Below are positions 7,908 to 31,759 of a DNA stretch of 32,000 nt, piece by piece. A program made the position numbers and the translations under genes. The DNA comes from Balneolaceae bacterium (lineage in GTDB: Bacteria; Bacteroidota; Rhodothermia; Balneolales; Balneolaceae), in assembly GCA_965601825.1 (NCBI GenBank), contig OZ271839.1:1985164-2017163 (forward strand). The letters are read 5' to 3'. The notes beneath the pieces are model-generated. The model saw only the letters and a program-made list of their open reading frames with translations, did no database searches and was not told where the DNA came from. Each line of letters starts with the position of its first letter. Position 1 is the stretch's first letter.

Positions 7908-7929
7908 ATCAATTTAAAAATCACTCACT

Positions 7930-9198: not shown

Positions 9199-9223
9199 AA
9201 GCCTCCAATTGGAGGCTTTTTTT
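9199..9223 (+). terminator. Rho-independent terminator closing the pdh operon, placed between convergent genes
   Basis: AAGCCTCC (9199-9206) - AATT - GGAGGCTT (9211-9218) perfect 8-bp stem running into a 7-T tract (9217-9223). The stop of the convergent - strand gene (9222-9224) abuts it. Confidence 0.75.
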
Positions 9224-11066
9224 ATGGAGTATACTCTAGGACAAAAATTACTGGTTCTGTGTTAAACACAGAATTCTGTAATAGATTAAATATCCTTCTG
9301 GTTTCATCCCAGCTGATGGATTGACCTGTCATCACAAAAAATTGCCCACTAGTTAACTCTTCAACTCGAGTATTAACCCCTGATTCTGACCGAACCTGTT
9401 GTGCAAGAGTTTCTGCAAATTGTTGATCGGAAAACGAGTTAACCTGTATTTGATAAGCATACTGATAATCAAAAGCTGTTTCCGGCTGATGACGAATAAA
9501 AAGGTTTGAAGTGATGCCTAATTCTCTAAATGATCTAAGTTGCGTTAGTACCTCATTTCTGTCGGTATATGGACCAGTAAGAATGTTATAAGTGTCAGAT
9601 ACACGATTCATGTAAGCTTGTACATTGTACTGATCAAACAACTCCATTGTGAAATTCAAACCATTCGTTCGATCCTGAAAAGCCCCAAATTGAATCAAAT
9701 ACTTAACCGGCTTAGGACGGTTAATAGTATTATTGTAGCACTGATGAACCAAGCTAACATTCGAATCACTTAACTGCGATGAGATTGTACTCTGCTTGGA
9801 AATAGCATCGCTAAATGAAGAAATCGCAGCAGTTCGAATTGAATAAGCTTCATTATTGAAAGTTAAAATCACTGGTTCTGCTATAGCAGTTTCAATTCTG
9901 GCTGCTTGTTGAAAAGCGGTTTGAAGTCCATCATACTCACCCAATCTAACTGCAAATTGACAACGGGCATCTACTCTTAGTAAAGAGGGCAGATTATTCG
10001 TTACAGGTATTATTTCCGGTTCAGGCTCTGGTTCAGGAGTAGTTGGAATTTCTCTAATAGGTTGTTGAAGTGGAGTTGGTTCCGTTTCAGGTTGAAGAGT
10101 TGTTTCATCTTGAGTTGATTCGTCTCGAACAGATTCCGTTTCATTAGCATCATTTCCATTAGGTTCAGCTGCTTGTTCACTTGCTTCTCGTTGCGCTTCG
10201 TCAATCCTATTTTGGTCAATTAAAGTGACGATAGCAGGTTGGTCAGCTAATACAACAATATCTTCCTCAACTGGAGTTGTTATTTCATTTGACTCTGGTG
10301 TTTGATCTTCAACTTCAACCTGATTTGTAGTTTCTTCAGCAAGTTCATCTTGTCGCTCTTCAAGTAAATTTTCTGTGGTATAGTAGAGACGAAGAACTAC
10401 GCGCCTATTTTGTTCTTTACTAGCTGCAAAAGGAAAACCAAGTGAATCATATTGAATTACCGGGCGCGAATCTGCATATCCGGAAGCTTTTAATCTTTTC
10501 GATTCGATACCCAGATCATTAAAGTACTTTACCACATTTGCAGCACGTGCCGTGGAGAGCTCCCAATTCGAGGGATATGCAACTGAAGAAATAGGATTAT
10601 TATCAGTGTGACCTTCTACATCGATATTAAAATCATTGTATTCGAGTTGCTGCATGGCGATCAACACTCGATCTAATAAATACTCTGCATCGGGTTGAAG
10701 TCTCGCTTCACCGGAGCTATAGAGGTAATCACTATTAAATCTGATTTTCAGATCATTCAAGTCGCGAATGATTTCTAGATTTCCGGCATCAATTTCAGGT
10801 TCCAAAAGTGTGAAAAGTTCATCTTGTATATTTCCGATAGGGGTGGTGAAGAACTCGGTTTCATCAGAAAACTTACCAAATAGTTCAGATAGAGAAGAAA
10901 ATTCGGTTTTTGTGATTTGAGATACAGCAAGAAGAATAATTAAAAAACCGAGTACAATCGTGATAATATCCAGGTAGCTAACTTGCCAACTAGATTCTTC
11001 TTCTTCCTCAAATTCTTGAAGAGGGAAAAGAGAGTGTTTAATTATTATTTGATCTCGTTTTTTCAA
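9222..11066 (-). CDS. MotB/OmpA-family stator-like protein with acidic Pro/Thr linker and three C-terminal SPOR-like domains
   Basis: TTG is the only in-frame start. W-QVSYLD-IITIVLGFLIILL single TM carrying the conserved MotB-type Asp (D33). OmpA-like core DVEGHTDNNP...NWELSTARAANVVKYF...GYADSRP...NRRVV. aa 231-352 E/T/P-rich linker (PEPEPEPE). aa 366-612 three SPOR-like repeats (YLIQFGAFQDRTNG...YNILTGPYTDRNEV; YQIQVNSFSDQQFAE...FFVMTGQSISWDET). Confidence 0.8.
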   Translation of the reverse strand: MKKRDQIIIKHSLFPLQEFEEEEESSWQVSYLDIITIVLGFLIILLAVSQITKTEFSSLSELFGKFSDETEFFTTPIGNIQDELFTLLEPEIDAGNLEIIRDLNDLKIRFNSDYLYSSGEARLQPDAEYLLDRVLIAMQQLEYNDFNIDVEGHTDNNPISSVAYPSNWELSTARAANVVKYFNDLGIESKRLKASGYADSRPVIQYDSLGFPFAASKEQNRRVVLRLYYTTENLLEERQDELAEETTNQVEVEDQTPESNEITTPVEEDIVVLADQPAIVTLIDQNRIDEAQREASEQAAEPNGNDANETESVRDESTQDETTLQPETEPTPLQQPIREIPTTPEPEPEPEIIPVTNNLPSLLRVDARCQFAVRLGEYDGLQTAFQQAARIETAIAEPVILTFNNEAYSIRTAAISSFSDAISKQSTISSQLSDSNVSLVHQCYNNTINRPKPVKYLIQFGAFQDRTNGLNFTMELFDQYNVQAYMNRVSDTYNILTGPYTDRNEVLTQLRSFRELGITSNLFIRHQPETAFDYQYAYQIQVNSFSDQQFAETLAQQVRSESGVNTRVEELTSGQFFVMTGQSISWDETRRIFNLLQNSVFNTEPVIFVLEYTP

Positions 11067-11078
11067 GAGGCATAGAAA

Positions 11079-11876
11079 TTAGATCATATTTCTATTTCTT
11101 CGCATATGAGCTTGAAGACGATCATAAATCTGAAGAGCAGTTTTATTCTCTTCAATTAGAATAATGCCTTCTAAAATCAATTTCTCTCGAAAATATCGTA
11201 AAGAAGCTACATTATTCATTTTCTTCGACATTGGCGTAAAAATGAAATTCCCTATTAAAATCCCATATAAAGTGGTCATAAGAGCAGCGCCAAGACCGGC
11301 TAGTAGTGACTCAACTTCACTAAAGCCGGATAGAATAACGATTAGGCCGAAAAGGGTTCCGAGCATACCAAAAACCGGTGAAGTCTTACCCATGCTTGCA
11401 ATAATTTGATTTACCAGTTGCTGTCGGGTATAGTTCTCTTCAATATTGATTTCGCCCAGTTCTCTTAAATCTTCAGTGGTATAATTAGTATCTAATACAG
11501 AGAAAAGGTATCCCTCAAACTGATCTGCATATTCTTCACTTAGTTGAGAAACAGCAGTAAATTTGTCTTGTTTGATCAGTTTTTGCCAGTCCATGATGCG
11601 TTGGATATCAGACTCGAGTACTTCTGGTGTTATTGTGCTGTAAGAGAATAGCTTCGTACTTTCAACTAGTGCTCTAAGTACACTATTGAACGGATAGCTA
11701 ATAAAAACACTTGCGGTAATTCCGCCAAAAACAATAGCCAAACTTGGCAAATTTAGAAACTCAAAACGCGATGGTATTAGATCGTATTCTGTAAATCCAA
11801 CCACTAATAACGCTCCCCAAACTAAAATGAGTAGAGAGATGAGAAAACATAAAATATTAAGGATCGAGGTACGCAT
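11079..11876 (-). CDS. MotA-type (MotA/TolQ/ExbB family) proton-channel protein, 4-TM flagellar-stator-like topology
   Basis: Two N-terminal TM helices, ~95-aa cytoplasmic loop, two C-terminal TM helices with SPVFGMLGTLFGLI and LGAALMTTLYGILIGNFIFTPM family signatures. C-terminal LILEGIILIEENKTALQIYDRL resembles the MotA tail. 12 nt upstream of the MotB-like gene. Confidence 0.85.
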   Translation of the reverse strand: MRTSILNILCFLISLLILVWGALLVVGFTEYDLIPSRFEFLNLPSLAIVFGGITASVFISYPFNSVLRALVESTKLFSYSTITPEVLESDIQRIMDWQKLIKQDKFTAVSQLSEEYADQFEGYLFSVLDTNYTTEDLRELGEINIEENYTRQQLVNQIIASMGKTSPVFGMLGTLFGLIVILSGFSEVESLLAGLGAALMTTLYGILIGNFIFTPMSKKMNNVASLRYFREKLILEGIILIEENKTALQIYDRLQAHMRRNRNMI

Positions 11877-11882
11877 GTAGGA

Positions 11883-12407
11883 CTAAAATGCCTTCTTTAA
11901 ATTTTCATCTATCAGGCCATTATTTTGTAACTGCTGGATAATGTAAGTGGATGAAGGTATGGGAACCTCAGGGTCCATTTCAAGTGCTCGACGCCATTGA
12001 TTTACAAATTCATTTATATATCCAAGTCCTAGATAAATGCTGCCCCTAAGTGCTAATACATCAGCATTTTCTTTAATTAAAGCCGCTCTGTTTATAAGGA
12101 ATAATGCATTTTCAAAATCACCGGAATAAAAATGTTGTTGAGCCAGTATATAATAGTTTGTCAGAGTATTTGCCTGGGCCTGATATCTGGAGTAAATATC
12201 GTCTTTGTAGAGCTCAATAAGGGCTTGTCTTAATTCTTCTTCTTTGGCTTGTGCCTGTGCAATACTATCTGCTTCTGGACTAATGATTAATTCCTGAGAA
12301 TCTACTGCACTTGTTCCACCATCAGAATCAGTTAACTCACCAGATGAACCGCAGTTAATTACGAATAGTGTAAAAAAGACCGCAATTGATGTGAGCCAAA
12401 ATTTCAT
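11883..12407 (-). CDS. TPR-repeat lipoprotein
   Basis: MKFWLTSIAVFFTLFVINC: signal peptide ending in Cys (lipobox-like). The rest reads as TPR-like helical repeats. ATG 12407 preferred over tracked TTG 12410. Gaps of 16 nt and 6 nt to its neighbours. Confidence 0.6.
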   Translation of the reverse strand: MKFWLTSIAVFFTLFVINCGSSGELTDSDGGTSAVDSQELIISPEADSIAQAQAKEEELRQALIELYKDDIYSRYQAQANTLTNYYILAQQHFYSGDFENALFLINRAALIKENADVLALRGSIYLGLGYINEFVNQWRRALEMDPEVPIPSSTYIIQQLQNNGLIDENLKKAF

Positions 12408-12426
12408 CAATCAATAAGATGTTGAG

Positions 12427-14283
12427 TTATGAGTAGCTGGCATTTTTTCTAATGGAATTCATCAAGATAGCTTTAGCGTATTCCGTTTGTTTAGTTGGAA
12501 TATCTTTTAGCTCGATAAGTTCCATTCTGAGTAGTCTCTGTTCTCTTTTAGGGCGCGCTGATAATATTTTTGTGATGATAGCTTCATCAAGCCCAACTAT
12601 AGCGTCTAAAAGTGTTTCAGTATTCAATGAACGAACAGCTCTTTTAATAATCTCATCGCTCAATTCTGGTAGCTGTTCAATAGTAATGAATTGCTTTTCA
12701 AGGATGGCCCCAACGATTGAACCAGTAGCTTTTAGTTCATCGATGTATCTTTTTTGTTCGTGAACCGGAAGTCGTTCAAGGATAGGGTAGATGTGCTCTG
12801 CACCGTATTGCTCACTTCTTTCAGCTTCGACTAAATCCATTGCTTTATCAAACAATTCAGACGATATCCTTTGCTGTTGATCGTTGGTTAAGTTATTCAA
12901 AGACGCCATTTGAAGCATGATCTTAGCAGCAATTTCCTTATCCAGCTTCTCAATAAACTCTGCAGCTGAGTCGTCCGGTAAATATTGTAGAATGAAAGCA
13001 CCGGATAAGCTATCCTCAGTTTCAAGTAAGGTGAGAATGTGGTGATTTGAAATATGATCTAAAAATTTAAATAAAGAGAATTTGTTTCGCTTACTCTCAG
13101 AAATCGTATCCTTTGCACCTTTTTCTAACATCTTCGCAAAATCAGTAACAACTTCTTTTCTACGGTCTGTTGTTAAATCAGGAAGTTCCATTACACTATC
13201 AATAACTGTATCGTAATCTTCCGGATGTAATTCTCGTTTTAACGTTCTAAGCAGATGTTTATCAACAGCTAGAATTACTTCAGCAGCTTTTCTGGCACCA
13301 TTCTCTTCTTCACTTAACCAGTATCTGAAAATTGTAGCAACTTCATCCGGCTTATTAAAGAAGGCTTCAACAACTTCCTCTTTTGTATTGATGAAAGTAT
13401 CAACACTTACTTCTTCAACTACATCAGTTTCCTCGGGTTCTTGAAAAGCAATAGGCTGAGGTGCATATTCATTTTTAAATGCTTCTCTAAACTCACGAAT
13501 AGGAATTTGGGGCGGTGGTTTATTCATTAAGCGATTGAACAGAATGGTTAAACCAAAGAGAAGCATCAAAGCTAAAGCCGGGATATACGTATATATCGAA
13601 TTGTAATCCGGTAGTGTTTGTGGCGTTATTGTAGTTGCCGTGATTGGTTCAGGCCTTTCAGAGAAGTCAGGAATGGCTAATTGCGAGATAATTATCTCAT
13701 CGCCACGAGCTTCGTTGGTTTTTACAGCTATACTTGTAATAAATCGCATCAACTCTAATTGTTCAGCAGTTAGAGAAGTATCAGCATAGATGTTAACGCT
13801 CATATTGATCAATCGAAGCGTCTTTATTGTATTCTGATTTACAATTACATCGGGCTGAAGACTAACAGAAGAAGGTGCACGAACATTTTCATCAGGTACA
13901 AAAGGAAGACCAGGCATGAACAGGTTTTGCCTTGGTTGAGACGTTGAAACAACTTGATTCTGACTAGTACCAATTGCTTCATCTACAAGCTCTGCATTTA
14001 TATTAACATCGATAAAAAACTTCTTTCTATTAAAGTAGTTTGCAAGAACTTGGATAATCTGGGAATCATACTGTTGTTCTAAATTAGTGACTCGCAATTC
14101 AAGTGACTGAGAATTTCCAGCGTCAATTGTAGCTTGTGCGCGAAGATCAGTTATAGTAGTTACATTAAAAATAATTAAGAAAAGAAGAGAAGGGGCGGCG
14201 ATTTTGAGTTCAAATATTGAACTGAGTTTAGAAGTCAATAAGTAAGATATAGGGGTATCTTTATGCATATTAGTCAGATGCAC
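12427..14283 (-). CDS. Membrane-anchored FliG-like protein: periplasmic ring-building-motif-like N-terminal half, TM helix, cytoplasmic three-domain FliG homologue
   Basis: aa 310-385 RKAAEVILAVDKHLLRTLKRELHPEDYDTVIDSVMEL...VVTDF (FliG-N pattern). aa 404-480 FKFLDHIS..LLETEDSLSGAFILQYLPDDSAAEFIEKLDKEIAAKIMLQMASLNNL (FliG-M / MgtE-N pattern). aa 525-612 LLDAIVGLDEAIITKILSARPKREQRLLRMELIELKDIPTKQTEYAKAILMNSIRK (FliG-C pattern with charged helix). TM at aa 229-252 (IYTYIPALALMLLFGLTILFNRL). Start is GTG 14283 or ATG 14268; either overlaps or abuts the usher stop (14270-14272). Confidence 0.7.
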   Translation of the reverse strand: MHLTNMHKDTPISYLLTSKLSSIFELKIAAPSLLFLIIFNVTTITDLRAQATIDAGNSQSLELRVTNLEQQYDSQIIQVLANYFNRKKFFIDVNINAELVDEAIGTSQNQVVSTSQPRQNLFMPGLPFVPDENVRAPSSVSLQPDVIVNQNTIKTLRLINMSVNIYADTSLTAEQLELMRFITSIAVKTNEARGDEIIISQLAIPDFSERPEPITATTITPQTLPDYNSIYTYIPALALMLLFGLTILFNRLMNKPPPQIPIREFREAFKNEYAPQPIAFQEPEETDVVEEVSVDTFINTKEEVVEAFFNKPDEVATIFRYWLSEEENGARKAAEVILAVDKHLLRTLKRELHPEDYDTVIDSVMELPDLTTDRRKEVVTDFAKMLEKGAKDTISESKRNKFSLFKFLDHISNHHILTLLETEDSLSGAFILQYLPDDSAAEFIEKLDKEIAAKIMLQMASLNNLTNDQQQRISSELFDKAMDLVEAERSEQYGAEHIYPILERLPVHEQKRYIDELKATGSIVGAILEKQFITIEQLPELSDEIIKRAVRSLNTETLLDAIVGLDEAIITKILSARPKREQRLLRMELIELKDIPTKQTEYAKAILMNSIRKNASYS

Positions 14284-17266
14284 CAGTGTTTACCCTCTCC
14301 TCTAGTGTTTCCATATCCGGAATATAGAGATCGGGGTTAAACCTCAATGCCTGTTCCCAATGTCTTTGCGCCTGTTCGATGTTTCCTTCAAAATAATAAA
14401 AACTTCCCTTTAATGCGTGCCCTTGTGCAGTTTCAAAAAGTTCTAATGATTCAGTCACTAAGCGGAATGCTACATCTATATTTTTACTATAAAATGCATT
14501 CTGTGCTCGAACTATATAGCGAAGGGCATCATCAATAGTTCCAAAGATTTCTTGGGAGTATTCTAAGATTTCGGGTGATGCTTTAATTGCATCAGTAACC
14601 TCAGCAATTGTGATTAATTCTTGTTCTGCTTCTTCGTCTAAGTCTTCAAGACTCCTTGGTGTTAATCGGAAGCTCAATCCTTCAACAAAATCGCCATTTT
14701 GTATTGCTTCAACTTCAAAATCAATTTTGTTTGGTGATGCATCAACTTGAAGGATATCAAGCTGTGATTGGTCGACACTTAAGGTATATGACCCTGGTGG
14801 AATTGGATATTCATAAAAACTGCCATCAGAAAATGTTCGTAGCTCGTTAATTACATTGCCACTATTATCAGCTAGAATGATTTTTAGACCACCAATACCT
14901 TGTTCCGTTGAATCGGGAAATACTCTATTTACACCACCTTCCATTACTCCAGCCATAAAAAATGGGATTTCAATTCTCTTGTAGGTATTTGGATCAGTTA
15001 TAATTGAAAACTTATCAACAGAGGGGACTAACATTGGATTATTGATAGATGAAATATTCATCTCAAGGTTATATTGAAAATACTGTTGCATCTGGTTGTA
15101 ATAGAGAACACCATTTTTAACAATAGCATTAGAACCACTTCTGTTAATTCGCATTCTGCCTTCTTCAATATCGTCATCAATTCCTTCATCGTAGATTTTG
15201 TTGTTATTATTATCAACAAATAGCTTAATGGCTGCTCCGGATCGCCCAACTTGATCTCTACTTGTTAGAATTAGGTTATCAAACTTGGTGTCATAGCCGA
15301 TTGAACCTCTTACACTGTTTGTTGTGCTATATCTATTACCTAGCTGTGTAAAAGTAGAATTTGCTCTAACTTTGTTAAAGTCTATAACAATATTAAATCG
15401 GATTGAATTTTCATTACTTAAGTAGTTTCTACCTAGAGTTAATTGAAACCTACCTTGCTTAAATACATTTCTTGATACCAAAAACTCAAGTGATTCCAGC
15501 TGAGACTGTTCGGCTAGGTATCTTGCTTGCCCTCGAACAAAAAAACCTTTAAATAAATCGGGTAATCGTGTATTTCTTGGTACAGTATAAGTAAATGAGT
15601 TTTCAAAGTACGATACTGGAGAAGGATCAAATATATTGTAAGTATTAGTTAGACGATCTGTATATCCCATTCGAATACTAAATTTCCTTATTCGAGTACT
15701 CAAATCTGTCCTAAATGTTGAGAAATTTCCTGTATCTCGTCTTCGGGTAAAATTTGAAACGCGAATATTTAGAGGGATTTCAAAAATTCTAAATGGGAAA
15801 AATAAGGAACCACTGAATTGATCTTTATTATTTGATGCATTGTAAAAACTTTGATTCTCACTAAAGTTCGTATAGTCAAATATGAAACTAGCACTATTAG
15901 CAAAAATTGAGTTAATCGAACTTCTGATATATCCATCATAAATACCTTCAAGCATAAGTGTTGTACTATTAGACAGTCTCGAAGATACTGAAGACACAAA
16001 ATAGGGGGTACTATTACCATTGGATTGATCATAATACTCAACGCCAAATTTGGTTGTTAGCCAATTTGTTAAGCCATAAGCAGCATTTCCTTGAAACGTG
16101 TAATTTTTACCAGTCTCACCAATAAAAAAGTTTTCAACATACCCGGCATTAGCTGTATAGTTTAATTCACCTTTTGGGATAAATGTAAATGGTATCTGAA
16201 TTCTGCTTCGCTTATTTATAATCTGACCAGTAGGCCCGTATATTCTGATATCTAATTGGGATGATCCATAATACCTAGGAATAAGAAATCGATAATTTCC
16301 AATTTCATCAGACTGTTGAAAATCCAGTAGTGAATTGTTTAGATAAAGTTCAACTTCTGATTGGGGAAAAGTAATACCATTAACTTCGTATTCATCAAAA
16401 AAAAGTCGAGGTTCAATTGGGTAATTAGAAATGCTAATGCCCGTATAAGGTGTCGTTAAAGCACCGCTTAAATTAGATTGTCCTACCGTAACCGTTGTTA
16501 ATGCGGGCTTTTCTTTTACTACATAACGCCATCGTAGACCATTTGTCTCTATTAGAGACACATCACTAGAAAAGTTACCGAATACTGCGCCCTGAATATC
16601 GCCACCTAATGCTTGAGCACCAATAACATTATTAAAGCTTACAGAACTTGTATTACTATTGATGGTAGTATTTACACTGTAATCGAGAAAACCAAAATCA
16701 AAGAAATTACGATTTAAGCCATCTCGTAAATCAAATAAGTTCTCATCTCTTCTAAGTAATGATGTTCTGCTTCTCTTTTGATCTCGAAGTGCCTTTTCTA
16801 TAATTGGCAGTTCTTGTAATGTATTTAGAGAGAGTGCTAGATTGTTAAAATCAACTGTAAAATCGAGTTCAAATACCGCATCAAATAAATCTACACGAAG
16901 AAAAGAGTCAAAATCTCCAAGTATGTAATCATCTGGAGAAATATCTATTCTTTTATCCTCAAACTGTATTACTCGTCTTTCAAAATCGATTAAATAAGGG
17001 ATTTGATCGATTGAAAAGTTTCCACTGATAATTAATCCTTCAACACTAGCTTCTAGCTGAAGAAGGGAGAAGAGTTCGTTTACAGGTAAGTAGAATTGAT
17101 CATTCTTATAAAAACTTGTGACATAAGAGCCAATTACCCCACGATGCCGGAATGTGAGATATACTTCAAATGCATCGTCATTATTTTGTGCACTTGCATT
17201 ATTTGGTAGAATGGAAACAAATGCAAGGCAAAAGATAAATGAAGCTTTAAGGCATTTGTAAATCAC
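14270..17266 (-). CDS. Fimbrial usher-like outer-membrane protein with extra C-terminal CarboxypepD_reg/Cna-B-like and TPR domains
   Basis: GTG start overlapping the chaperone stop (GTGA, 17263-17266). Signal peptide ...PNNASA-QN. VYLTFRHRGVIGSYVTSFYKNDQFYLPVNELFSLLQL resembles an usher N-domain. aa 274-362 YTGISISNYPIEPR..SEVELYLNNSLL..GNYRFLIP..LDIRIYGPTGQI..RIQIP matches the PapC/FimD plug-region pattern. Long aromatic-rich beta-strand region. aa 771-872 GGLKIILADNSGNV..TFSDGSFYEYPIPPGSYTL. aa 912-983 TPR. Confidence 0.6.
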   Translation of the reverse strand: MIYKCLKASFIFCLAFVSILPNNASAQNNDDAFEVYLTFRHRGVIGSYVTSFYKNDQFYLPVNELFSLLQLEASVEGLIISGNFSIDQIPYLIDFERRVIQFEDKRIDISPDDYILGDFDSFLRVDLFDAVFELDFTVDFNNLALSLNTLQELPIIEKALRDQKRSRTSLLRRDENLFDLRDGLNRNFFDFGFLDYSVNTTINSNTSSVSFNNVIGAQALGGDIQGAVFGNFSSDVSLIETNGLRWRYVVKEKPALTTVTVGQSNLSGALTTPYTGISISNYPIEPRLFFDEYEVNGITFPQSEVELYLNNSLLDFQQSDEIGNYRFLIPRYYGSSQLDIRIYGPTGQIINKRSRIQIPFTFIPKGELNYTANAGYVENFFIGETGKNYTFQGNAAYGLTNWLTTKFGVEYYDQSNGNSTPYFVSSVSSRLSNSTTLMLEGIYDGYIRSSINSIFANSASFIFDYTNFSENQSFYNASNNKDQFSGSLFFPFRIFEIPLNIRVSNFTRRRDTGNFSTFRTDLSTRIRKFSIRMGYTDRLTNTYNIFDPSPVSYFENSFTYTVPRNTRLPDLFKGFFVRGQARYLAEQSQLESLEFLVSRNVFKQGRFQLTLGRNYLSNENSIRFNIVIDFNKVRANSTFTQLGNRYSTTNSVRGSIGYDTKFDNLILTSRDQVGRSGAAIKLFVDNNNNKIYDEGIDDDIEEGRMRINRSGSNAIVKNGVLYYNQMQQYFQYNLEMNISSINNPMLVPSVDKFSIITDPNTYKRIEIPFFMAGVMEGGVNRVFPDSTEQGIGGLKIILADNSGNVINELRTFSDGSFYEYPIPPGSYTLSVDQSQLDILQVDASPNKIDFEVEAIQNGDFVEGLSFRLTPRSLEDLDEEAEQELITIAEVTDAIKASPEILEYSQEIFGTIDDALRYIVRAQNAFYSKNIDVAFRLVTESLELFETAQGHALKGSFYYFEGNIEQAQRHWEQALRFNPDLYIPDMETLEERVNTGASD

Positions 17267-18093
17267 CTAATTGTATAAGAAATAGATCTAGTTTGTGTTT
17301 CAATAGGAATTATATCATCTGTAGGCACGTCGCTTCTACTGCTCTCAAAAGTGGAGGTAATGATATAATTACCAGCTGGTAAATCATCAATATCAAATTC
17401 TTGGCGATGTGCGCCATCGAAATATAGTGATGTCGAAACGAAAGCTCTTCGTACTTCAATACCATTATTATTTACTATTGATGTTGAAATAGAACCAAGG
17501 AAAGGGGAGTTGCCGCCTCTTTCATAAGAAGTAATCACAGAAATGGAACTTTCCTCTTCATTTGGTTCAACTGTAATATCACCAATCTCGATTCCAGTAC
17601 TTACATCACCAACTTTATAAAATAACCCAGTTACTTGCTCAATGGTGATAGCAACCCTTGCGCTAACAACATCAGTGGCTTGAAGCTCAACTGGTGGTGA
17701 TTCAGGTGTAGATGATGTTCTGATTCTAGCCCAATACGTACCGTCGTCTAAAGAATTATCTGCATTTATTCGAAGGCGAACGGTTTGTCTTTGTCCAGGT
17801 GCAACCGTAAAATTTCTTGGGAATGCTCGGATTTTATCTGCAATTGAGTATTGTAACTCAGAGGTACTATCTGTAGTGATAAGTTGCCGCGTTCCATCCG
17901 GTAGACTACCGCTATAAGCGAAGAAAAAATCCACTGAAATTTCCTGTGTTTGGTTTGAACTATTTATAATTAAATAGCTACCAAATTTAGAATCATCCGT
18001 TATAAATAAATTGGTTGGTGCAATAGTTACCTGTGCTCTAATACTGCACGCTATAAAGAAGAGTAAGAAAATAGATGATATATATCGTTTCAT
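17263..18093 (-). CDS. PapD-like periplasmic fimbrial chaperone (two Ig-like domains)
   Basis: Signal peptide. VTIAPTNLFI..SYLIINSSNQTQEISV (strand A/B pattern). IRAFPRNFTVAPGQRQTVRLRI..DDGTYWARIRTSSTP (PapD core pattern f.v.PP.f.l.Pg..q.vRl). VAITIEQVTGLFYKVGD (FYRP-like strand). A second beta-rich domain. Sits directly upstream of and overlapping the usher-like gene. Confidence 0.6.
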   Translation of the reverse strand: MKRYISSIFLLFFIACSIRAQVTIAPTNLFITDDSKFGSYLIINSSNQTQEISVDFFFAYSGSLPDGTRQLITTDSTSELQYSIADKIRAFPRNFTVAPGQRQTVRLRINADNSLDDGTYWARIRTSSTPESPPVELQATDVVSARVAITIEQVTGLFYKVGDVSTGIEIGDITVEPNEEESSISVITSYERGGNSPFLGSISTSIVNNNGIEVRRAFVSTSLYFDGAHRQEFDIDDLPAGNYIITSTFESSRSDVPTDDIIPIETQTRSISYTIR

Positions 18094-18213: not shown

Positions 18214-18717
18214 TTACTGATAAGAAACTTCAAGTGAAATTGTAGCAGTGTAGTCAGAAGCTGCAGCTTGTGAAGAACCAGGTGTTACTGTTCCGCCAAT
18301 ATAGACATATAGAAAACCTGAACCGTCAAATGATGCACCTGTATAAGTAGAATTAGGATCAAAAGCAGTCAAAGTTCCGGGAGTTCCATCTGCATCCCAA
18401 CCAGCATCTGTTGCAGAAAATGAAATAGGCATTGTAGCGCCACCAGCAGTTGCACTTGTTAAATTTGATGGAAGTGTAAAGGTTAAATCTACACCAGCCG
18501 TAGCTGAACCAACAAAATCAAAGTTACCTGCATCTGCAACTGCCTTATCAATAGATTTTGCTATATCAGGTGTAACATTACCAAACTCTAAATCTCCAGG
18601 TGTTACAGTTACTGCTGCGATAACATTTGCGTTAGCAGCGATATCAAAAGATTGTGCGTTTACATTAGCAGCAACAAAAAATGTTGCAAAAACGAATAAA
18701 GAAACTAATTTTTTCAT
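18214..18717 (-). CDS. Small secreted DUF4402/Csu/SCPU-like fimbrial subunit, candidate major subunit
   Basis: Signal peptide ...ANVNA-QS. Ala/Gly/Thr-rich. Family motifs DLEFGNV, FLYVYIGGTV and C-terminal SDYTATISLEVSYQ shared with three upstream paralogues. Has its own flanking intergenic regions and terminator. Confidence 0.65.
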   Translation of the reverse strand: MKKLVSLFVFATFFVAANVNAQSFDIAANANVIAAVTVTPGDLEFGNVTPDIAKSIDKAVADAGNFDFVGSATAGVDLTFTLPSNLTSATAGGATMPISFSATDAGWDADGTPGTLTAFDPNSTYTGASFDGSGFLYVYIGGTVTPGSSQAAASDYTATISLEVSYQ

Positions 18718-18748
18718 GACAGTAGTATTTGTTGTTTATTTTCTACAC

Positions 18749-18756
18749 CAAACTTA
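18749..18756 (-). promoter_or_regulatory. Bacteroidota-type -7 promoter box candidate (TAAGTTTG = TAnnTTTG) for the major subunit gene
   Basis: - strand TAAGTTTG lies 31 nt upstream of the ATG at 18717. An ATTG sits 20 nt further upstream (possible -33 element). Same box-to-ATG spacing as at 23364-23371. Confidence 0.3.
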
Positions 18757-18786
18757 AGACACTTTCTTTTACCTACCAATTAGATG

Positions 18787-18800
18787 TTCTTAATTAAAAG
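18787..18800. promoter_or_regulatory. TTCTTAATTAA-containing candidate operator, copy 1
   Basis: + strand TTCTTAATTAAAAG shares an 11-nt core with the perfect palindrome at 20461-20474. Lies just upstream of the putative promoter of the major subunit gene. Confidence 0.3.
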
Positions 18801-18804
18801 CTGA

Positions 18805-19323
18805 CTATTGGTATTCAATATGTAGTACCACGTCTGCATTATAGGTGCCATTCTGAACATCACCGACGTCAACGCTACCAAAAACATATACATACAGCTG
18901 TTGCCATATATTATTAGATTCGGTTAATCCATTACCTAAAACATTAACATAACCCTCATTATCCAATAGAAGTGAAGAATTAAACGGATTATTTGAACCT
19001 GAATTGTTGTAGGCAATATCGAGGTTTATTGGTATACGATCTTGAACTGCCGGATTAATATGTTGCAAATATTCAGGTACCGATAGACTAAGAAAAAGTT
19101 CTTGGGTATTTATTGTTTTGATATTAAAAATTCCCATATCAATGTCACCCAGTTCAATTTCATCGATCCCAGAATTTGTAACTAGTATCCCAAAATTTAA
19201 TTCCTGATCAATTTCTGTACTAATTTCAGGCTCGACAGTAAGCTGAAGATTAATGAATTGGGCATACGTAGTCTGTGTTAATAAGAAAAAAAGTACACAA
19301 ATATGTATGACCTTATTAATCAT
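18805..19323 (-). CDS. Small secreted DUF4402/Csu/SCPU-like fimbrial subunit paralogue
   Basis: Signal peptide ...TTYA-QF. Motifs ELNFGIL, QLYVYVFGSV, NGTYNADVVLHIEYQ. Start overlaps the upstream paralogue by 8 nt. Confidence 0.55.
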   Translation of the reverse strand: MINKVIHICVLFFLLTQTTYAQFINLQLTVEPEISTEIDQELNFGILVTNSGIDEIELGDIDMGIFNIKTINTQELFLSLSVPEYLQHINPAVQDRIPINLDIAYNNSGSNNPFNSSLLLDNEGYVNVLGNGLTESNNIWQQLYVYVFGSVDVGDVQNGTYNADVVLHIEYQ

Positions 19324-19903
19324 AGCTAACCATAATATTTATGTTGCCTGTATAATTTCCGGCATCTACAGTACCTACATTAATTGAACCATAGATATAT
19401 AAATAGGCAGTATCATTAAAAACTGCGGGGTTATAGCCTTCATAAACCGGTGTTGGTGGGGGACCTGGTGGTCCACTTCCTCTATATTTTAAAGGAAATT
19501 GTGCACTTGCAACACTACCCAATACCATCATATTGATTGACTGGCTAGTCAAGTTTTGGCCTTGATTCGCATAAGATGACTGAAGTGTGAATGGGATTCT
19601 ACAAGCTGGATTTGTTTCACATCCTATTAAGCCATCAAGCAATAAATATTGATCTGCAGTTACTTCAACTAATACATCTAAATATTCTACACCTGTAATT
19701 GTGAATATTTTAGAACTATTAATATCTATCGATGCACTTGTTTCCTGAACAACTGTACCAAATTCAAGATTGGTTCCAGGCGAAAATTCATCTAGACTAA
19801 CTGAATAAAGACTGCTATATGTACCAAAGTTAATTTCTTGTGCAATTGAAGAAATACTGAATAAGTGAATTAATAGTAATATTGAAATTAACTTCGTTAT
19901 CAT
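19316..19903 (-). CDS. Small secreted DUF4402/Csu/SCPU-like fimbrial subunit paralogue (divergent: Cys pair and PPGPPPTP insert)
   Basis: ATG 19903 (MITKLISILLLIHLFSISSIA-QE, good signal peptide, 1 nt after the upstream stop) preferred over tracked ATG 19942, which overlaps the upstream gene by 38 nt. Motifs NLEFGTV, AYLYIYGSINV, AGNYTGNINIMVSYD. Confidence 0.55.
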   Translation of the reverse strand: MITKLISILLLIHLFSISSIAQEINFGTYSSLYSVSLDEFSPGTNLEFGTVVQETSASIDINSSKIFTITGVEYLDVLVEVTADQYLLLDGLIGCETNPACRIPFTLQSSYANQGQNLTSQSINMMVLGSVASAQFPLKYRGSGPPGPPPTPVYEGYNPAVFNDTAYLYIYGSINVGTVDAGNYTGNINIMVSYD

Positions 19904-19904
19904 T

Positions 19905-20399
19905 TTAGATATAATCGATTTCGATAGTGAAATCTCCTTCATATGTACCAGGTACGGCTTGTTCTAGGTTTACACGGCCACCAACCCAGATATAATACCT
20001 CCCTTCGTTGTTAAAGAAAATATTTTGATTTCTTTCTTCAATTAACTCAGAGGTCGTCTGGTCTTCGATAGAATTGCCGGATAACTCATAGGTAAACGTT
20101 AATGTACCTTCACCTGTTGTATTTGTTAGTTCTCTAGCGCGTAGAAAATCTAACCGGAATTCAGCTTCAGGTGTACCTAATGCAATCATAAAGCCTGCAT
20201 TAAGATCTGTGATTGGATTAACATATAATTCATTTTCATCAGCATCAGAATTTCCAAATGTCATTGAGTTTATCGTAACTAACTCAATAACTGGTGTAAC
20301 TTGTGCATTGATATTAATTGTAGCTGTTAATCCATCTCCCGATTGACCAAATGATAAAGCAGGTAGAAATAGTACAATAATAGTGATTAGAGATCTCAT
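19905..20399 (-). CDS. Small secreted DUF4402/Csu/SCPU-like fimbrial subunit paralogue (first gene of the subunit block)
   Basis: Signal peptide ...ALSFG-QS. Motifs SMTFGNS, RYYIWVGGRV, PGTYEGDFTIEIDYI. Confidence 0.55.
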   Translation of the reverse strand: MRSLITIIVLFLPALSFGQSGDGLTATININAQVTPVIELVTINSMTFGNSDADENELYVNPITDLNAGFMIALGTPEAEFRLDFLRARELTNTTGEGTLTFTYELSGNSIEDQTTSELIEERNQNIFFNNEGRYYIWVGGRVNLEQAVPGTYEGDFTIEIDYI

Positions 20400-20885: not shown

Positions 20886-20888
20886 TTA

Positions 20889-22319: not shown

Positions 22320-22328
22320 GACTACTCC

Positions 22329-23551: not shown

Positions 23552-26500
23552 TTATTTAATAAAGGTCATTTTTTTGATAAAAACCTCCCCGTTAGCTTGA
23601 AGGCGATAGAAGTAAACTCCACTGGCTAAAGCATTTGCATTAAACCGCGTTTCATAACGACCCGGCTGTTGTTGACCGTCTATTAAGGTTTGAACCTTCC
23701 GACCCAAGATGTCATACACTTCAAGTAGAACATTGGATGTTTGATCAACTCCAAATTCAATAATTGTGCTAGGATTAAAAGGATTAGGGTAGTTTTGATT
23801 CAAGAAAATAGCTTCAGGTACATCTCGTTCAATTTGCTCGGTACTTATTTTCAGAGTAAATCGAGTGTTCATTGTGGAAGCTTTAGCTTTCAATTGCTGT
23901 TGTGGTGAAAGTGGATCTAAATTTCTTCGAATCTTGGCGCGTGTAGTATGATTGAAAGAGAATGAATTTTGATCAAATAAATTGATTTCATCACCGGTTT
24001 CATTATCAATTAGAATGAAAATCCAATCATCAGGAACTCCTCTCAAGGTATTCCATTTCATGGTATAGTTTCCTGATACCGGGACTCCATTTTCAAAGGA
24101 TTCAAAGTGTAATGGAATAAAATATCTTGAATTGAAATCAGCAGGTAGATTATTAATTGCCAACTCAGTTCCATTTTCTAATAATGAGTGGAATTCAATG
24201 TGTGATGCTGACAGCGGTAATAAAGTGAATGCATCTAGATCATCTTTTCCAATCTCAGCAGTCTCTGAAAATAAAATGTTAGTTCGTTTTGTACGACCAT
24301 TTTCGCCTGTAATTGCTATCTCTATTTGTGGGTAAGGAATGTCATTAGATTTCTGCTTTACCCGAATTGAATCTTCAATTATTTCCTGACCTGAATCTAG
24401 TCCTTTCCTTAAGAACGAGTTGCCTTGAGTTTTTGCATCTTTCTTTACTTTAAGAACTGGACTTACATCACTTGCTTTTACCCAGAATCCCTGGAAAGGA
24501 GCTATTAGTCCACCATTTGGTAAGGTACCTGTTATTCCATTCCAAGTTAGATATTCACCATCGCCACCATTTGCGGCAGGATCCCAAATATAAATCGTAG
24601 ACTCAACATTAGTTTTGGTCCAGTTCGGTGTGTCATCCCAATCTATTGTCGCTGCAAAAGGATTACCAATTAAATTCCAACCGGAATCTGCGGTAGCAGT
24701 GTAAGTAATGCCAAAGTCAACCTCAGTATCGTCTCCATTCCATTCCTGACCTCCAGCATCTAAAGTATCAGGTAGAGCTTCATTATATAGTGGATCAGCT
24801 GCAATATCACCAAATACAAAAAGGAACATTCCCTGACCTTGGGTTAAGGTCTGACTTGAACTTGTAGGTGCTCGATATCGTTGGTTGTCTGTTGCAGAAC
24901 CGCCATCGATATTTATATCATAGGTTTCATCATAGGTTAACACATTCGGTTGTAATGTATCACCAGGACTAGTTGTTGAAGTGTAGAATGCACCTGGATA
25001 ACCTTGAGTTAAGGTTCCATCCAATAAATCACCATAGGTAGTATTAAAAGGGGAGGAGATTAGTCGCCATCCAATGCTTCCAGTAATCTCTCTTTGCATT
25101 CGAATCGAGCCTGAACCATAACTTTTTGAATTTGCTATTAAGTTTGATCCACTTGGCAGAAACATAACTCCATCAACTAAATTCAATGAATCCGTTACAG
25201 TTACATTACCAACAAAATCAGCACCATTTGAATTATCAATTTCAAGATTCGTGAAACTATTCGGACTTGTAATAGTCTGTTTTACGCTCCCATTCAATAT
25301 TATGTAACCAATGGTGGCATCATTAACATCTAAGGCGCCACCTACAGTTAAGGTATCTGTATTACTTCCGAAAATATCGCCCTCGCCGGATGTCTCACCT
25401 GTTACCACAAAATTGATTCCACCAGATACAGTTACAGATGCCGCATTTTCTATCGAGATTTGAGCAATCGTGGTATTTGTTGTACTAACTACAGGTTGCT
25501 GAGTACCTTGAGATGGTGATGCAGGTATTAACACTTTATCAGTTGGACCCGGAACCACACCAGCACTCCAGTTTACAGCATTATCCCAATCATTTGCCAC
25601 ATTTGGCAATCCGGGACTCGATTGCCACTGTGTATTAAATTCAGCGTATTCTACTTGAGCAGTGTTAGTGATGGATGCACCATTCAAGGTTCCCGATATA
25701 GTGGCAGTACCTGCAATAATTGATGAAGTCAATGTTGCAGAATAAGTACCATCTAAGTTATCGGTTACTGAACCGAGGGAACCCGAAGTAACACTTAATA
25801 AAACAGTTTCTCCACCAGCAGTTAAATTATTTCCTTCAGAGTCTTTAGTCTGAATTGTGACTGTTGTTGTGGCAAAACCATCGTTAAAAATTACAGTTGG
25901 GCTAACGGAGATCGTAGTTGTTAGCTCAGAAGCAGCTCCTGGAGTCACTGTGAAACTGTTACTAGTACCTTCTTCTGCACCGGCAGAATTTGTGGCTGTT
26001 ATTGAACATGTACCCAGATCGGTTATGCTCACAGTTAGAGATGATAATACACCATTGGTGAAAGAAGGAGTTGTTCCTGCACCGGTTCCTATATTACAAT
26101 TTGAGGACGTTAGAGAAGCTGTACCATTAAAAGTAGTAACAGTATCTTGAGCACCATCAATTGCTACCAGTGTAATGTTGAAATTCTGTCCAGCAAGTTT
26201 ATCTGAAATATTCCCAAAAGGGACACGCTCAACTTTAAAACCTGTCAGTTGCCCAAGAACCACCACATCGAAATCAGTACTGGTTGTATCTGTTAAGCCA
26301 GTGCTTGAAGCCGTCAAATTATAGGTCCCAGTATCATCAACTATCAGATTATCAAATTCGGCAATTCCAAATAAATTGGTTTCTTCAAGTGTAGTTGAAG
26401 CGATATCAAAGACACCAGATCCACTTACAGCATTTAAAGCCATAGTCACATCAATTCGACTTTCTTCAACGGGATTTCCAAACTGATCTATTAATTGTAT

Positions 26501-31663: not shown

Positions 31664-31759
31664 ATGAATTAATTCGAAAACAAATATAGCCAAACCTACC
31701 TTTTTAGTAGGCTTAATTAGTGGATTCTAATTAGATACCGTGCTTATCGAACTCTTTGC

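Follow-up and report, generated by a model that had tools for sequence, protein, structure and literature searches.

The minus-strand gene at 12427..14283 of the window (the whole 32-kb stretch of DNA that was analysed) encodes a trimmed FliF, which has lost RBM1 and RBM2, joined head-to-tail to a whole FliG. The relationship is one of homology and not of mere resemblance. Together with the genes around it, the fusion is best read as part of a minimal rotor ring driven by MotAB that would pass energy to an outer-membrane partner, a reading to which we give a probability of about 0.6. That a FliF-like part and FliG form one polypeptide of 618 aa had been proposed in an earlier note on this DNA and was borne out by a FliG profile match (E=2.9e-20), a FliF profile match (E=1.5e-8) and Foldseek, which found both. 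An alternative start at ATG 14268 gives a product of 613 aa that is identical to database protein P0001. A gene-call or frameshift artefact was ruled out, as the fusion is intact in every ~600-aa cluster representative listed and in 38 species loci. The protein has the following parts.

12427..14283, minus strand: FliF–FliG fusion protein, 618 aa, GTG start at 14283
14137..14283, minus strand: probable signal peptide, aa 1-49 (hydrophobic aa 20-47, small-x-small/Q site, putative cleavage before Q50)
13669..14121, minus strand: FliF RBM3 plus beta-collar (S-ring)-like periplasmic domain, aa 55-205 (AF2 secondary structure, Foldseek, profile)
13885..13917, minus strand: conserved (M/L)PGLPxxPxEN motif, aa 123-133, in the disordered collar-tip loop (pLDDT < 50)
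13522..13599, minus strand: single transmembrane helix equivalent to FliF TM2, aa 229-254 (AF2, profile, hydrophobicity)
13300..13371, minus strand: FliF C-terminal FliG-docking motif FFNKPDEVATIFRYWLSEE, aa 305-328, aligned to the last residues of Salmonella FliF, Vibrio FliF and a third FliF
13078..13299, minus strand: FliG N-terminal domain, aa 329-402 (Pfam FliG_N; 5tdy_B, E=5e-4; Foldseek to full-length FliG)
12724..13077, minus strand: FliG middle domain and linker helix, aa 403-520, EHPQR motif lost
12430..12723, minus strand: FliG C-terminal domain, aa 521-618 (Pfam FliG_C, 39.6 bits; 1qc7 by Foldseek, TMt 0.77, rmsd 2.5)
12505..12555, minus strand: torque helix RPKREQRLLRMELIELK, aa 577-593, aligned to T. 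maritima SKRAAALLKDELEYM

In its C-terminal half the protein is a complete FliG: the N, M and C domains are all present, and the torque helix is conserved. FliG_N (39.9 bits), FliG_M (37.6 bits) and FliG_C (39.6 bits) all scored above their Pfam gathering cut-offs, while MgtE_N reached 22.1 bits and stayed below its cut-off of 25.9. A 68-homologue profile of the fusion matched T. maritima FliG-MC (1lkv) with E=2.9e-20 at fusion positions ~394-602 and FliG_N (5tdy_B) with E=5e-4 at positions 313-378, and the PDB matches of this profile were FliG chains only. The AF2 monomer model (pLDDT 74) was matched by Foldseek to full-length FliG of A. aeolicus (3hjl) with E=2.6e-8 over 314 columns; at a pTM of 0.34 its inter-domain arrangement is unreliable. 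The three-domain FliG of the earlier note, for which an AlphaFold check of the fold had been suggested, was thus recovered. So were its ARM-like segment and its charged torque helix, as the profile alignments paired the EHPQR/ARM-M segment of FliG with LLETEDSLSGAFILQYLP and the torque helix SKRAAALLKDELEYM of T. maritima FliG with PKREQRLLRMELIEL. The same note had named an MgtE-N fold lacking FliG_C as the finding that would speak against it; a FliG_C with its torque helix was found, and MgtE_N remained below threshold.

Conservation was counted in 31 members of the fusion family with identities down to 17%. The conservation of charged residues in the torque helix, which the earlier note had wanted checked, is strict at one position and partial at another: R580, the equivalent of E. 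coli FliG R281, is K or R in all 31 members, whereas E588, the equivalent of D289, is D or E in only 19. The position equivalent to D288 is not acidic in the query. At the EHPQR site the query reads ETEDSL, and Glu alone is conserved (24 of 31 sequences). The EHPQR motif of FliG_M serves in FliM binding; its loss and the lack of fliM or fliN in the cluster fit the earlier suggestion of a rotor without FliM/FliN. Against the NCBIfam fliG equivalog TIGR00207 the fusion scored 52.9 bits, far below the cut-off of 226.7.

Exactly two hydrophobic segments are present in the fusion protein, aa 20-47 and aa 229-254. The second coincides with the transmembrane helix that had been placed at aa 229-252. 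The first had been called a signal anchor; it ends in a conserved small-x-small/Q site with Q50 invariant in 19 aligned sequences, and therefore reads as a signal peptide that is probably cleaved. A signal peptide followed by a single transmembrane helix, together with the periplasmic LysM domain found N-terminally in some homologues, puts the FliG part on the cytoplasmic side; a periplasmic position would have contradicted the earlier note.

In the periplasmic domain, AF2 gave the order helix 61-81, strands 89-110, a disordered loop 111-144, strands 145-167, helix 173-187 and strand 196-201. This topology of helix, long hairpin, disordered loop, long hairpin, helix and strand is that of RBM3 plus collar. 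Foldseek led to the S-ring/RBM3-collar region of Salmonella FliF (7d84_A, 6e-5; 6sd1_A, 9.6e-5; ~158 columns), and the FliF chains 7d84_A, 6sd1_A and 8zdt_A had E values from 6e-5 to 1e-4, a TMt of ~0.5 and a probability of 1.0. With a profile built from 22 diverse members over the N-terminal half, aa 55-335, Salmonella FliF was matched at E=1.5e-8 from residue 375 to the last residue, 560; RBM3b and its RGD motif, TM2 and the FliG-binding motif at the C-terminus all fall within this span. The share of the periplasmic domain in this match is FliF residues 375-438, RGD motif included. Vibrio FliF was also matched (E=2.7e-5). In the N-half alignment KPDEVATIFRYWLSEE of the fusion stands opposite FliF DPRVVALVIRQWMSND. 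Pfam YscJ_FliF_C was found in 17 of the 22 members, and the RGD motif is present in 29-31 of the 31. The periplasmic ring-building domain of the earlier note therefore stands as an RBM3 of FliF type, but not as two motifs: the reading as two RBMs was ruled out in favour of a single RBM3 that a beta-collar-like insertion interrupts, the two segments named in the note being its halves. RBM1 and RBM2, the domains in which FliF holds the export gate, are absent, as the periplasmic part comprises only ~150 residues with one RBM3-like domain according to AF2, Foldseek and profile.

Within the docking motif, P312 is conserved in 26 and W322 in 29 of the 31 members. Directly behind this motif stands ENGARKAAEVILAV, which resembles the start of FliG; the measured support for FliG_N after the docking motif is the profile match to 5tdy_B at 313-378. 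In the loop at the collar tip, P124 (30/31), G125 (29/31), L126 (28/31) and P127 (29/31) are retained among members that are 17-40% identical. The (M/L)PGLP loop is accordingly conserved in sequence and may be an output or docking site.

The fusion gene lies in a cluster with the following features.

9199..9218: palindromic terminator-like hairpin at the end of the operon
9222..11066, minus strand: MotB-type stator B subunit, 614 aa, with transmembrane Asp, plug, OmpA-like domain, linker and SPOR
11079..11876, minus strand: MotA/PomA-type stator A subunit, 265 aa (Pfam MotA_ExbB)
11883..12410, minus strand: TPR lipoprotein, 175 aa (TPR matches; lipobox VINC, lipobox Cys in orthologues)
14270..17266, minus strand: usher-like protein, 998 aa, presumed outer-membrane (weak Pfam Usher in relatives)
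14282..14671, minus strand: C-terminal TPR domain of the usher-like protein, aa ~866-995 (BLASTP)
17263..18093, minus strand: chaperone-like secreted all-beta protein, 276 aa, role proposed by position only
18214..20399, minus strand: four DUF4402-type pilin-like genes, 167, 172, 208 and 164 aa (weak DUF4402 matches, synteny)
23552..31693, minus strand: giant T9SS cargo protein, 2713 aa (Por_Secre_tail, Invasin_D3, LamG)

The intergenic gaps in the operon are 6-16 nt. A sigma-70 promoter scan gave 49 sites as against 55.5 in shuffled sequence, Bacteroidota-type promoters being outside the model of the scan. The stator is of flagellar type. MotA scored 89-99 bits with the NCBIfam flagellar stator families MotA/MotP/PomA, below the equivalog cut-offs, and its PDB matches were flagellar stators only (E 3.4e-22 to 2e-9; 8ucs_C 3.4e-22, PomA 3e-16), with no ExbB or TolQ among the profile matches at E<=0.01. 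It has four transmembrane helices and a large cytoplasmic domain, is 68-93% identical across Balneolaceae and keeps both prolines equivalent to E. coli P173 and P222. The loop charges are not exactly at the E. coli R90/E98 positions. At or near R90, K99 and K105 are each conserved in 39 of 43 sequences and position 102 is K or R in 28 of 43; at the E98 equivalent Ser predominates, and acids follow within the next one to five residues, at 111, 114 and 115. MotB matched Pfam MotB_plug (30.2 bits) and OmpA (53.5 bits), and its transmembrane Asp is kept in all five aligned loci.

The pilus-like gene cluster around the fusion had not been seen in the earlier note. The usher-like gene stops within 1-14 nt of the start of FliF–FliG, abutting or overlapping it, and keeps its upstream place in every related locus long enough to show it. 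Pfam Usher (PF00577) was matched by one of 10 usher-like orthologues at 7e-4, and weakly by the homologue at locus L046. The protein of the window itself had no Usher match in Pfam or when the single sequence and a 10-sequence profile were compared with the PDB, where TPR matches only were obtained. Its TPR domain is paralogous to the free TPR lipoprotein (BLASTP E 5e-8 to 1e-14 with TPR proteins of five loci). For the chaperone-like protein no PapD-type signal was detected in Pfam or by PDB profile, and an AF2 model made without alignment (pLDDT 45) was too poor for a fold search. The designations usher and chaperone are weak assignments. The profiles of the pilin-like genes gave no significant match; their homologue at L002 has an unmarked DUF4402 match. 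No flagellar fliM/N, flhA/B, fliPQR, rod, hook or flagellin genes were present in the 32-kb window or in the examined ±10-kb flanks.

The order of the 11 genes, namely giant T9SS protein, four DUF4402 pilin-like proteins, chaperone-like protein, ~1000-aa usher-like protein, FliF–FliG, TPR, MotA and MotB, was found in each of the 35 Balneolaceae loci (GTDB species) that span both flanks. The other three of the 38 species loci (L014, L021 and L039) stop at a contig or record end and agree with this order up to that point. Across 36-77% divergence none of the ORFs is broken. The same order occurs at L002, L044, L045 and L046, where the fusion homologues are 17-23% identical; the giant T9SS protein stands beside the cluster in L002, L044 and L045 as well as in Balneolaceae. 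In a second locus type, which includes Elusimicrobiota, the pilus genes are replaced by a ~365-aa protein resembling an outer-membrane protein, whose profile gave no significant match. The core FliFG–TPR–MotA–MotB is shared by Elusimicrobiota and other loci without pilus genes, and the gene for the TPR lipoprotein is present in every related locus. The fusion family comprises 135 clusters (50% identity) at E<1e-30, nearly all of ~600 aa; the taxonomy of its distant members comes from two Elusimicrobiota MAGs only. Homologues are annotated as FliG by JGI. Three members (P0121, P0125 and P0161) carry a periplasmic N-terminal LysM domain, which most members lack.

From the homology of the parts, the fusion junction, the conservation and the gene linkage we infer the following mechanism of ring formation, rotation, TPR–loop contact and output. 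Many copies of the fusion would assemble through RBM3 and collar into a membrane ring, a minimal S-ring bearing its own FliG ring on the cytoplasmic face, and this ring would do without FliM/FliN and without a type III export gate. Stators of MotA5B2 type, encoded two genes downstream, would be held on peptidoglycan by the OmpA-like domain of MotB, and their ion flow would push on the torque helix of FliG_C, so that the ring is turned or loaded. The (M/L)PGLP loop of the collar might be held by a TPR domain, either the free TPR lipoprotein or the C-terminal TPR of the usher-like protein, which is a guess. The ion-motive energy of the inner membrane would in this way reach the outer membrane. 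For this window and all Balneolaceae, it would serve to assemble, rotate or retract DUF4402 fibres; with the second locus type, its target would be the ~365-aa outer-membrane-like protein. A narrower version is put forward only tentatively: a non-flagellar rotary machine in which MotAB would drive a minimal FliF–FliG ring that is linked, by way of the collar loop and a TPR adaptor, to the usher-like protein of the outer membrane, so that DUF4402 fibres are spun, extruded or retracted and the giant T9SS adhesin is possibly moved as well. LysM normally binds peptidoglycan. Its presence in P0121, P0125 and P0161 would hinder free rotation and speaks against the rotor-ring reading, as do the MotA loop charges displaced from the E. 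coli positions and the D289-equivalent acid in only 19 of 31 members.

The anchoring LysM domains would suit a device that transduces force without continuous rotation, in which MotAB meets a stationary docking platform made up of the FliF–FliG ring or of a smaller oligomer. Once docked on FliG_C, MotAB would unplug and revolve in place, and a limited stroke or signal would pass through the collar and TPR adaptor to the outer-membrane partner, closer to Ton/Tol energy transduction than to a flagellar propeller. Both MotB and the TPR lipoprotein have an anchor in the wall or a membrane, the partners belong to the outer membrane as in Ton/Tol-type systems, and axial rod or bearing genes were not found in the window. 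However, the fusion has retained precisely the parts of which the rotating S-ring and the torque-receiving FliG ring consist, the positive charge of the torque helix is universal (31/31), the stator is of flagellar and not of Exb/Tol type, and LysM is missing from most members. We consider a fixed platform rather unlikely.

It is highly improbable that the fusion is the MS-ring/rotor of a Balneolaceae flagellar motor, or a decaying remnant of one, with an incidental position beside pilus genes. Balneola vulgaris has been described as flagellated (PMC5167729), MotA and MotB are of flagellar type and JGI calls the homologues FliG. Nevertheless, RBM1 and RBM2 with their place for the export gate are absent, the FliM-binding EHPQR is lost, the score of 52.9 bits is far from the fliG equivalog cut-off of 226.7, and the window and examined flanks lacked the flagellar genes searched for. 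The same pilus-like order recurs in 35 of 38 Balneolaceae loci (the rest end early) and with homologues of 17-23% identity, so the position is not incidental; and since the ORFs stay intact over 36-77% divergence, the gene is not decaying. Hardly any credence is given to a C-terminal half that is an MgtE_N-type Mg2+-sensing or regulatory module in place of a torque-receiving FliG. MgtE_N and FliG are known homologues, the sub-threshold MgtE_N score has its counterpart in the Pfam matches of many homologues, and such a sensor was nonetheless ruled out by Pfam, profile and Foldseek as far as sequence and fold evidence reach. Three FliG domains exceed their cut-offs while MgtE_N misses its own, FliG_C has its torque helix, the PDB profile matches are FliG chains only, Pfam showed no CBS and no MgtE membrane domain, and the linkage to motAB is obligate.

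The proposed rotor ring shares with the core of the flagellar MS-ring/C-ring the RBM3/beta-collar fold, TM2, the Trp-containing FliF C-terminal motif that docks FliG_N, the FliG N, M and C domains with a charged torque helix, a four-helix MotA with a large cytoplasmic domain, and a MotB with transmembrane Asp, plug and OmpA-like peptidoglycan-binding domain. In contrast to the flagellar core, FliF and FliG are one polypeptide, FliG is tethered to the membrane, RBM1, RBM2 and probably TM1 are absent, EHPQR is lost, genes for FliM/FliN, export apparatus, rod, hook and filament are missing, and the neighbours are pilin-like, usher-like, TPR and T9SS-cargo genes. Flagellar FliF forms a ring of ~33/34 subunits. 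In Salmonella and Vibrio, FliF–FliG fusions obtained by engineering or mutation still form S-rings (e.g. PDB 8z4d/8z4g; PMC11481574, PMC10941966, PMC6079021), and such a fusion is therefore structurally compatible with ring assembly. They share with the present protein the direct covalent junction of FliF C-terminus and FliG N-terminus; they consist of complete flagellar proteins, whereas the natural fusion, with its 135 clusters at 50% identity, lacks RBM1/RBM2 and has a non-flagellar context. The rings of SpoIIIAG and SctJ/PrgK also have the RBM fold, in SpoIIIAG with an insertion that forms a beta-ring, but the similarity is much weaker than to FliF (Foldseek 5wc3, E=0.23; 2y9j_Y, E=0.26), and these proteins have neither a FliG nor a stator partner.

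ExbBD–TonB, TolQR–TolA–Pal, GldLM/PorLM and AglRQS–Glt are possible functional analogues that bring ion-motive force across the periplasm to the outer membrane; for the T9SS/gliding motor GldLM/PorLM, the T9SS cargo protein in the cluster is a further point of comparison. In those 5:2 motors the B subunit itself or a protein of TonB/TolA type spans the periplasm and there is no FliG-type ring target, whereas here a flagellar-type stator would act on a FliF/FliG ring. Archaic chaperone–usher pili (Csu/spore-coat-U type) resemble the cluster in the succession of small secreted pilin-like proteins, a beta protein of ~280 aa and a secreted protein of ~1000 aa, and weak Pfam Usher and TcfC matches were seen among the usher-like homologues. 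In contrast to these pili, the proteins of the window gave neither a PapD-type chaperone signal nor a significant Usher match, and the usher-like protein bears a C-terminal TPR domain. We know of no chaperone–usher pilus that needs an inner-membrane energy source.

To our knowledge, FliG, FliF and Mot-type stators have so far been known solely as flagellar parts. A passage of bioRxiv 10.1101/2024.12.05.626484 is quoted in this connection. In the literature searched, neither this cluster nor DUF4402 nor a naturally occurring FliF–FliG fusion was found described. The position of MotAB beside the fusion in pilus-like rather than flagellar surroundings suggests a previously undescribed ion-driven machine made from flagellar motor parts. 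The fusion family is a concrete, widespread and conserved case in which the S-ring part of FliF and FliG occur with their own flagellar-type stator, a TPR adaptor and an outer-membrane partner. If the rotor-ring proposal is true, this would be the smallest set of parts able to make a Mot-driven ring and a new route for ion-motive energy to the outer membrane. It would also offer a simple system for rotor–stator coupling and for scenarios of the origin or reduction of the flagellar motor, with Balneola isolates available in culture. Should the narrower version of a rotary machine hold, it would be the first flagellar rotor–stator pair outside the flagellum and the first chaperone–usher-like pilus energised from the inner membrane, and a natural "half a motor" that is functional in itself would bear on the evolution of the flagellar motor.

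The ORF of the FliF–FliG fusion (12427-14283, minus strand) begins with GTG and encodes 618 aa. An ATG five codons after the GTG lies one base past the upstream gene's stop codon, and translation from it yields the 613 aa of a protein in public data (P0001). The Pfam domains FliG_N (39.9 bits), FliG_M (37.6 bits) and FliG_C (39.6 bits) all exceeded their gathering scores. A profile of 68 homologues covered the whole structure of 1lkv (T. maritima FliG-MC; E=2.9e-20) and matched the FliG_N domain of 5tdy (E=5e-4). An AlphaFold2 model calculated from the 68-sequence alignment (mean pLDDT 74, pTM 0.34) was aligned by Foldseek across 314 columns with full-length FliG of A. aeolicus (E=2.6e-8) and also with Salmonella C-ring FliG chains. 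The C-terminal half is thus FliG, as proposed in the earlier note, far beyond chance. In the profile alignment its "ARM-like" segment fell on the EHPQR region of FliG_M and its charged helix RPKREQRLLRMELIEL on the FliG torque helix. An MgtE-like sensor was rejected, since MgtE_N reached only 22.1 bits (cut-off 25.9), while FliG_C with the torque helix was present and both profile and Foldseek pointed to FliG.

The AlphaFold2 model of the N-terminal half consisted of the following elements:
aa 61-81: helix
aa 89-110: long hairpin 1
aa 111-144: disordered loop
aa 145-167: long hairpin 2
aa 173-187: helix
aa 196-201: strand
aa 229-253 (hydrophobic stretch 229-254): TM helix

In the Foldseek ranking of the whole model, about 20 FliF S-ring chains (RBM3 and beta-collar) came next below the FliG chains, for example 7d84_A (6e-5), 8zdt_A (7.6e-5) and 6sd1_A (9.6e-5), with a probability of 1.0, and each was covered nearly completely. 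SpoIIIAG and PrgK reached E values of only about 0.2-0.3. The two ring-building segments described in the earlier note turned out to belong to a single RBM3, which the collar insertion divides in two. A profile of aa 55-335 from 22 diverse members, run against PDB sequences, matched FliF of Salmonella (E=1.5e-8, the best match), FliF of Vibrio (2.7e-5) and a third FliF (7.5e-4). The aligned span extended from residue 375 of Salmonella FliF to its very last residue and comprised the second half of RBM3 with RGD, TM2 and the C-terminal FliG-docking motif (KPDEVATIFRYWLSEE in the fusion, DPRVVALVIRQWMSND in FliF). Pfam YscJ_FliF_C was found in 17 of the 22 members. Directly C-terminal of the docking motif stands ENGARKAAEVILAV, which we take to resemble the FliG N-terminus. 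Because the FliF match ends in the docking motif and this FliG-like start follows directly, FliF and FliG are fused end to start in this protein. Anchor and rotor-like part are therefore joined in one polypeptide, each half being identified by both profile and Foldseek.

Only two hydrophobic stretches, aa 20-47 and aa 229-254, are present in the fusion. The first ends at a conserved small-x-small|Gln site with an invariant Q50 and is probably a cleaved signal peptide. With a signal peptide and one TM helix, RBM3 and collar would be periplasmic and FliG cytoplasmic. The periplasmic location expected for the N-terminal half was thus retained, the supposed signal-anchor is better read as a cleaved signal peptide, and a periplasmic FliG part disagrees with this topology. 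In three homologues (P0121, P0125 and P0161) the RBM3-like domain is preceded by LysM. LysM domains bind peptidoglycan, and their placement fits a periplasmic RBM3-like domain.

An exhaustive profile search at E<1e-30 yielded 135 cluster representatives at the 50% identity level, nearly all of them 580-750 aa long and matched in both halves. Conservation was counted in 31 members with identities down to 17%. The (M/L)PGLP motif of the collar-loop tip was kept in 28-30 of these, D168 in 30, RGD in 29-31, the FliF/FliG junction residues W322 and G329 in 29 each, and F405 and F407 in 29-30. All 31 have a positively charged residue where E. coli FliG has R281, and 19 have an acid at the D289 equivalent; the FliM-binding EHPQR motif was not kept. 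In the family members P0154 (754 aa) and P0161 (807 aa), a single gene call continues from FliF–FliG into a lipobox segment and a TPR domain, which reflects either a genuine fusion of three parts or read-through in the gene call.

Downstream of the fusion, with gaps of 6-16 nt, follow genes for a TPR lipoprotein (175 aa), a MotA homologue (265 aa) and a MotB/OmpA protein (614 aa) with plug and SPOR domain. Among solved structures, the MotA-like protein matched flagellar stators only, including 8ucs (C. sporogenes MotA in the stator–FliG complex; 3.4e-22) and PomA (3e-16), with no ExbB or TolQ chain among the matches. The MotA, MotP and PomA families of NCBIfam scored 89-99 bits, below their equivalog cut-offs. 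The MotB channel Asp and two MotA prolines are retained. In 43 orthologues the cytoplasmic loop of MotA has two conserved lysines, K99 and K105, and several acids; because these charges do not coincide exactly with R90 and E98 of E. coli, their pairing with charges of FliG is only plausible. MotA (11079-11876, minus strand) is the best-kept protein of the cluster, with 68-93% identity across the 38 loci of the Balneolaceae scan (L006-L043), compared with 36-77% for FliF–FliG and 40-54% for the usher-like protein. The long, acidic Pro-rich linker and SPOR domain after the OmpA-like domain of MotB (aa ~240-614; 9222-10346, minus strand) occur at all Balneolaceae loci and are restricted to them; MotB of the distant loci is about 225 aa long and lacks this extension. 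The TPR lipoprotein (11883-12410, minus strand) and the C-terminal ~130 residues of the usher-like protein (14282-14671, minus strand) are paralogues (BLASTP E 5e-8 to 1e-14 for TPR proteins of five loci), which suggests a shared docking site for the two in the machine.

The other features around the fusion were:
9199-9218: palindromic GC-rich hairpin with flanking T-run, between the convergent E2 acyltransferase and MotB genes
upstream of the fusion: secreted protein (usher-like), 998 aa, with C-terminal TPR domain
upstream: secreted beta protein (chaperone-like), 276 aa
upstream: four DUF4402-like small secreted proteins
20493-23332, minus strand: four short to mid-sized ORFs (139, 194, 476 and 130 aa), separating the giant gene from the DUF4402 genes
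23552-31693, minus strand: T9SS cargo protein, 2713 aa, with Invasin_D3, LamG and DUF2341

The hairpin is probably a two-way terminator closing the operon. The 139-, 194- and 476-aa products have an N-terminal hydrophobic helix of pilin-like appearance, and the 130-aa product starts with an apparently ordinary signal peptide, the last residues of which are AQ. DUF4900 is present in the 476-aa product; its gene and the 130-aa gene occur in one Balneolaceae clade only, and in the Balneola clade the giant gene is immediately beside the pilin-like genes. A giant protein of 2000-2700 aa adjoins the DUF4402 genes in Balneolaceae and at the distant loci L002 (1-2451), L044 (1-1375) and L045 (1-2384); the proteins of the window and of L045 end in a T9SS sorting domain. 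The giant protein may belong to the FliF–FliG system. The remaining genes of the window are housekeeping genes (AlaRS, pyruvate dehydrogenase subunits, a response regulator), and no further flagellar genes were found in the 32 kb. Antisense ORFs of 81-194 aa at 12452-12763 (plus), 11164-11409 (plus) and 7914-8498 (minus) are almost certainly not genes, because they overlap real genes and give low-complexity translations.

The GTDB scan gave 38 distinct loci, all from Balneolaceae or mislabelled relatives. By tblastn mapping, every locus reaching the flanks showed the order (giant protein), pilin-like, chaperone-like, usher-like, FliF–FliG, TPR, MotA, MotB. This pilus-linked order (type A) was also present with members sharing just 17-23% identity with the query (L002/L003, L044, L045 and L046), and L046 encodes a ~1000-aa protein with a weak Pfam Usher match. 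At L001 (Elusimicrobiota), L004, L005 and L047 the pilus genes were absent, and the order was FliF–FliG, a ~365-aa secreted protein, TPR, MotA and MotB (type B). The ~365-aa protein was encoded at:
L001, 11956-13029
L004, 11788-12918
L005, 9232-10329
L047, 10415-11602

Its sequence shows an N-terminal "GVDAFLEG…VWS" motif, a single weak Pfam FlgO match (E=0.009) and an aromatic-x-Phe C-terminus as in outer-membrane barrels, a hint that it may be such a barrel. From the comparison of types A and B, the invariant core is therefore FliF–FliG, TPR, MotA and MotB, with a variable outer-membrane partner.

All parts for a stator–rotor pair are present and conserved, and the part of FliF that was kept is exactly the S-ring builder. 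In flagella the number of S-ring subunits equals that of FliG, as seen in FliF cryo-EM structures. Laboratory FliF–FliG fusions retained ring formation (PMC11481574, PMC6079021). The natural fusion would likewise assemble into a ring, and MotAB units would turn or load it via the torque helix. The conserved LPGLP loop of the collar, which matches the disordered collar insertion of FliF in position, would be the output; in basal-body cryo-EM work this insertion faces the rod. A TPR domain, a typical peptide-binding module, could connect the loop to the outer-membrane partner. Candidate outputs are assembly, rotation or retraction of a fibre, or movement of the giant adhesin. This mechanism has to be read with the LysM domain in a few members, the inexact MotA charge positions and the weak "usher" and "chaperone" identities in mind, and the ring itself is a prediction.

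A serious alternative, although clearly the less probable one, is that the fusion forms a fixed, Ton/Tol-like platform with a limited stroke; a peptidoglycan-binding LysM domain on some members would be awkward for a freely rotating ring. That the fusion is the flagellar rotor of Balneola, or a remnant of it, is far less probable still. B. vulgaris has been reported to be flagellated (PMC5167729), but RBM1, RBM2 and EHPQR are lost, flagellar neighbours are absent at the loci examined, the gene order with pilus-like neighbours is strictly kept, no ORF is broken, and Elusimicrobiota have the module as well.

The literature searched contained no account of a FliF–FliG fusion in nature or of its gene cluster. 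The main text of a paper on MotAB evolution mentions FliG once, for the rotor–stator contact residues of E. coli, and does not mention Balneola or Bacteroidetes. Rotor proteins in non-motile species were explicitly left unexplained in a 2025 preprint (bioRxiv 10.1101/2024.12.05.626484). Database names for the family are "FliG", "FliG C-terminal domain-containing" or hypothetical. The fusion system represents a flagellar rotor–stator core that has been fused, trimmed and redeployed, and a rotary or ion-driven chaperone–usher-like pilus, if true, would be categorically new.
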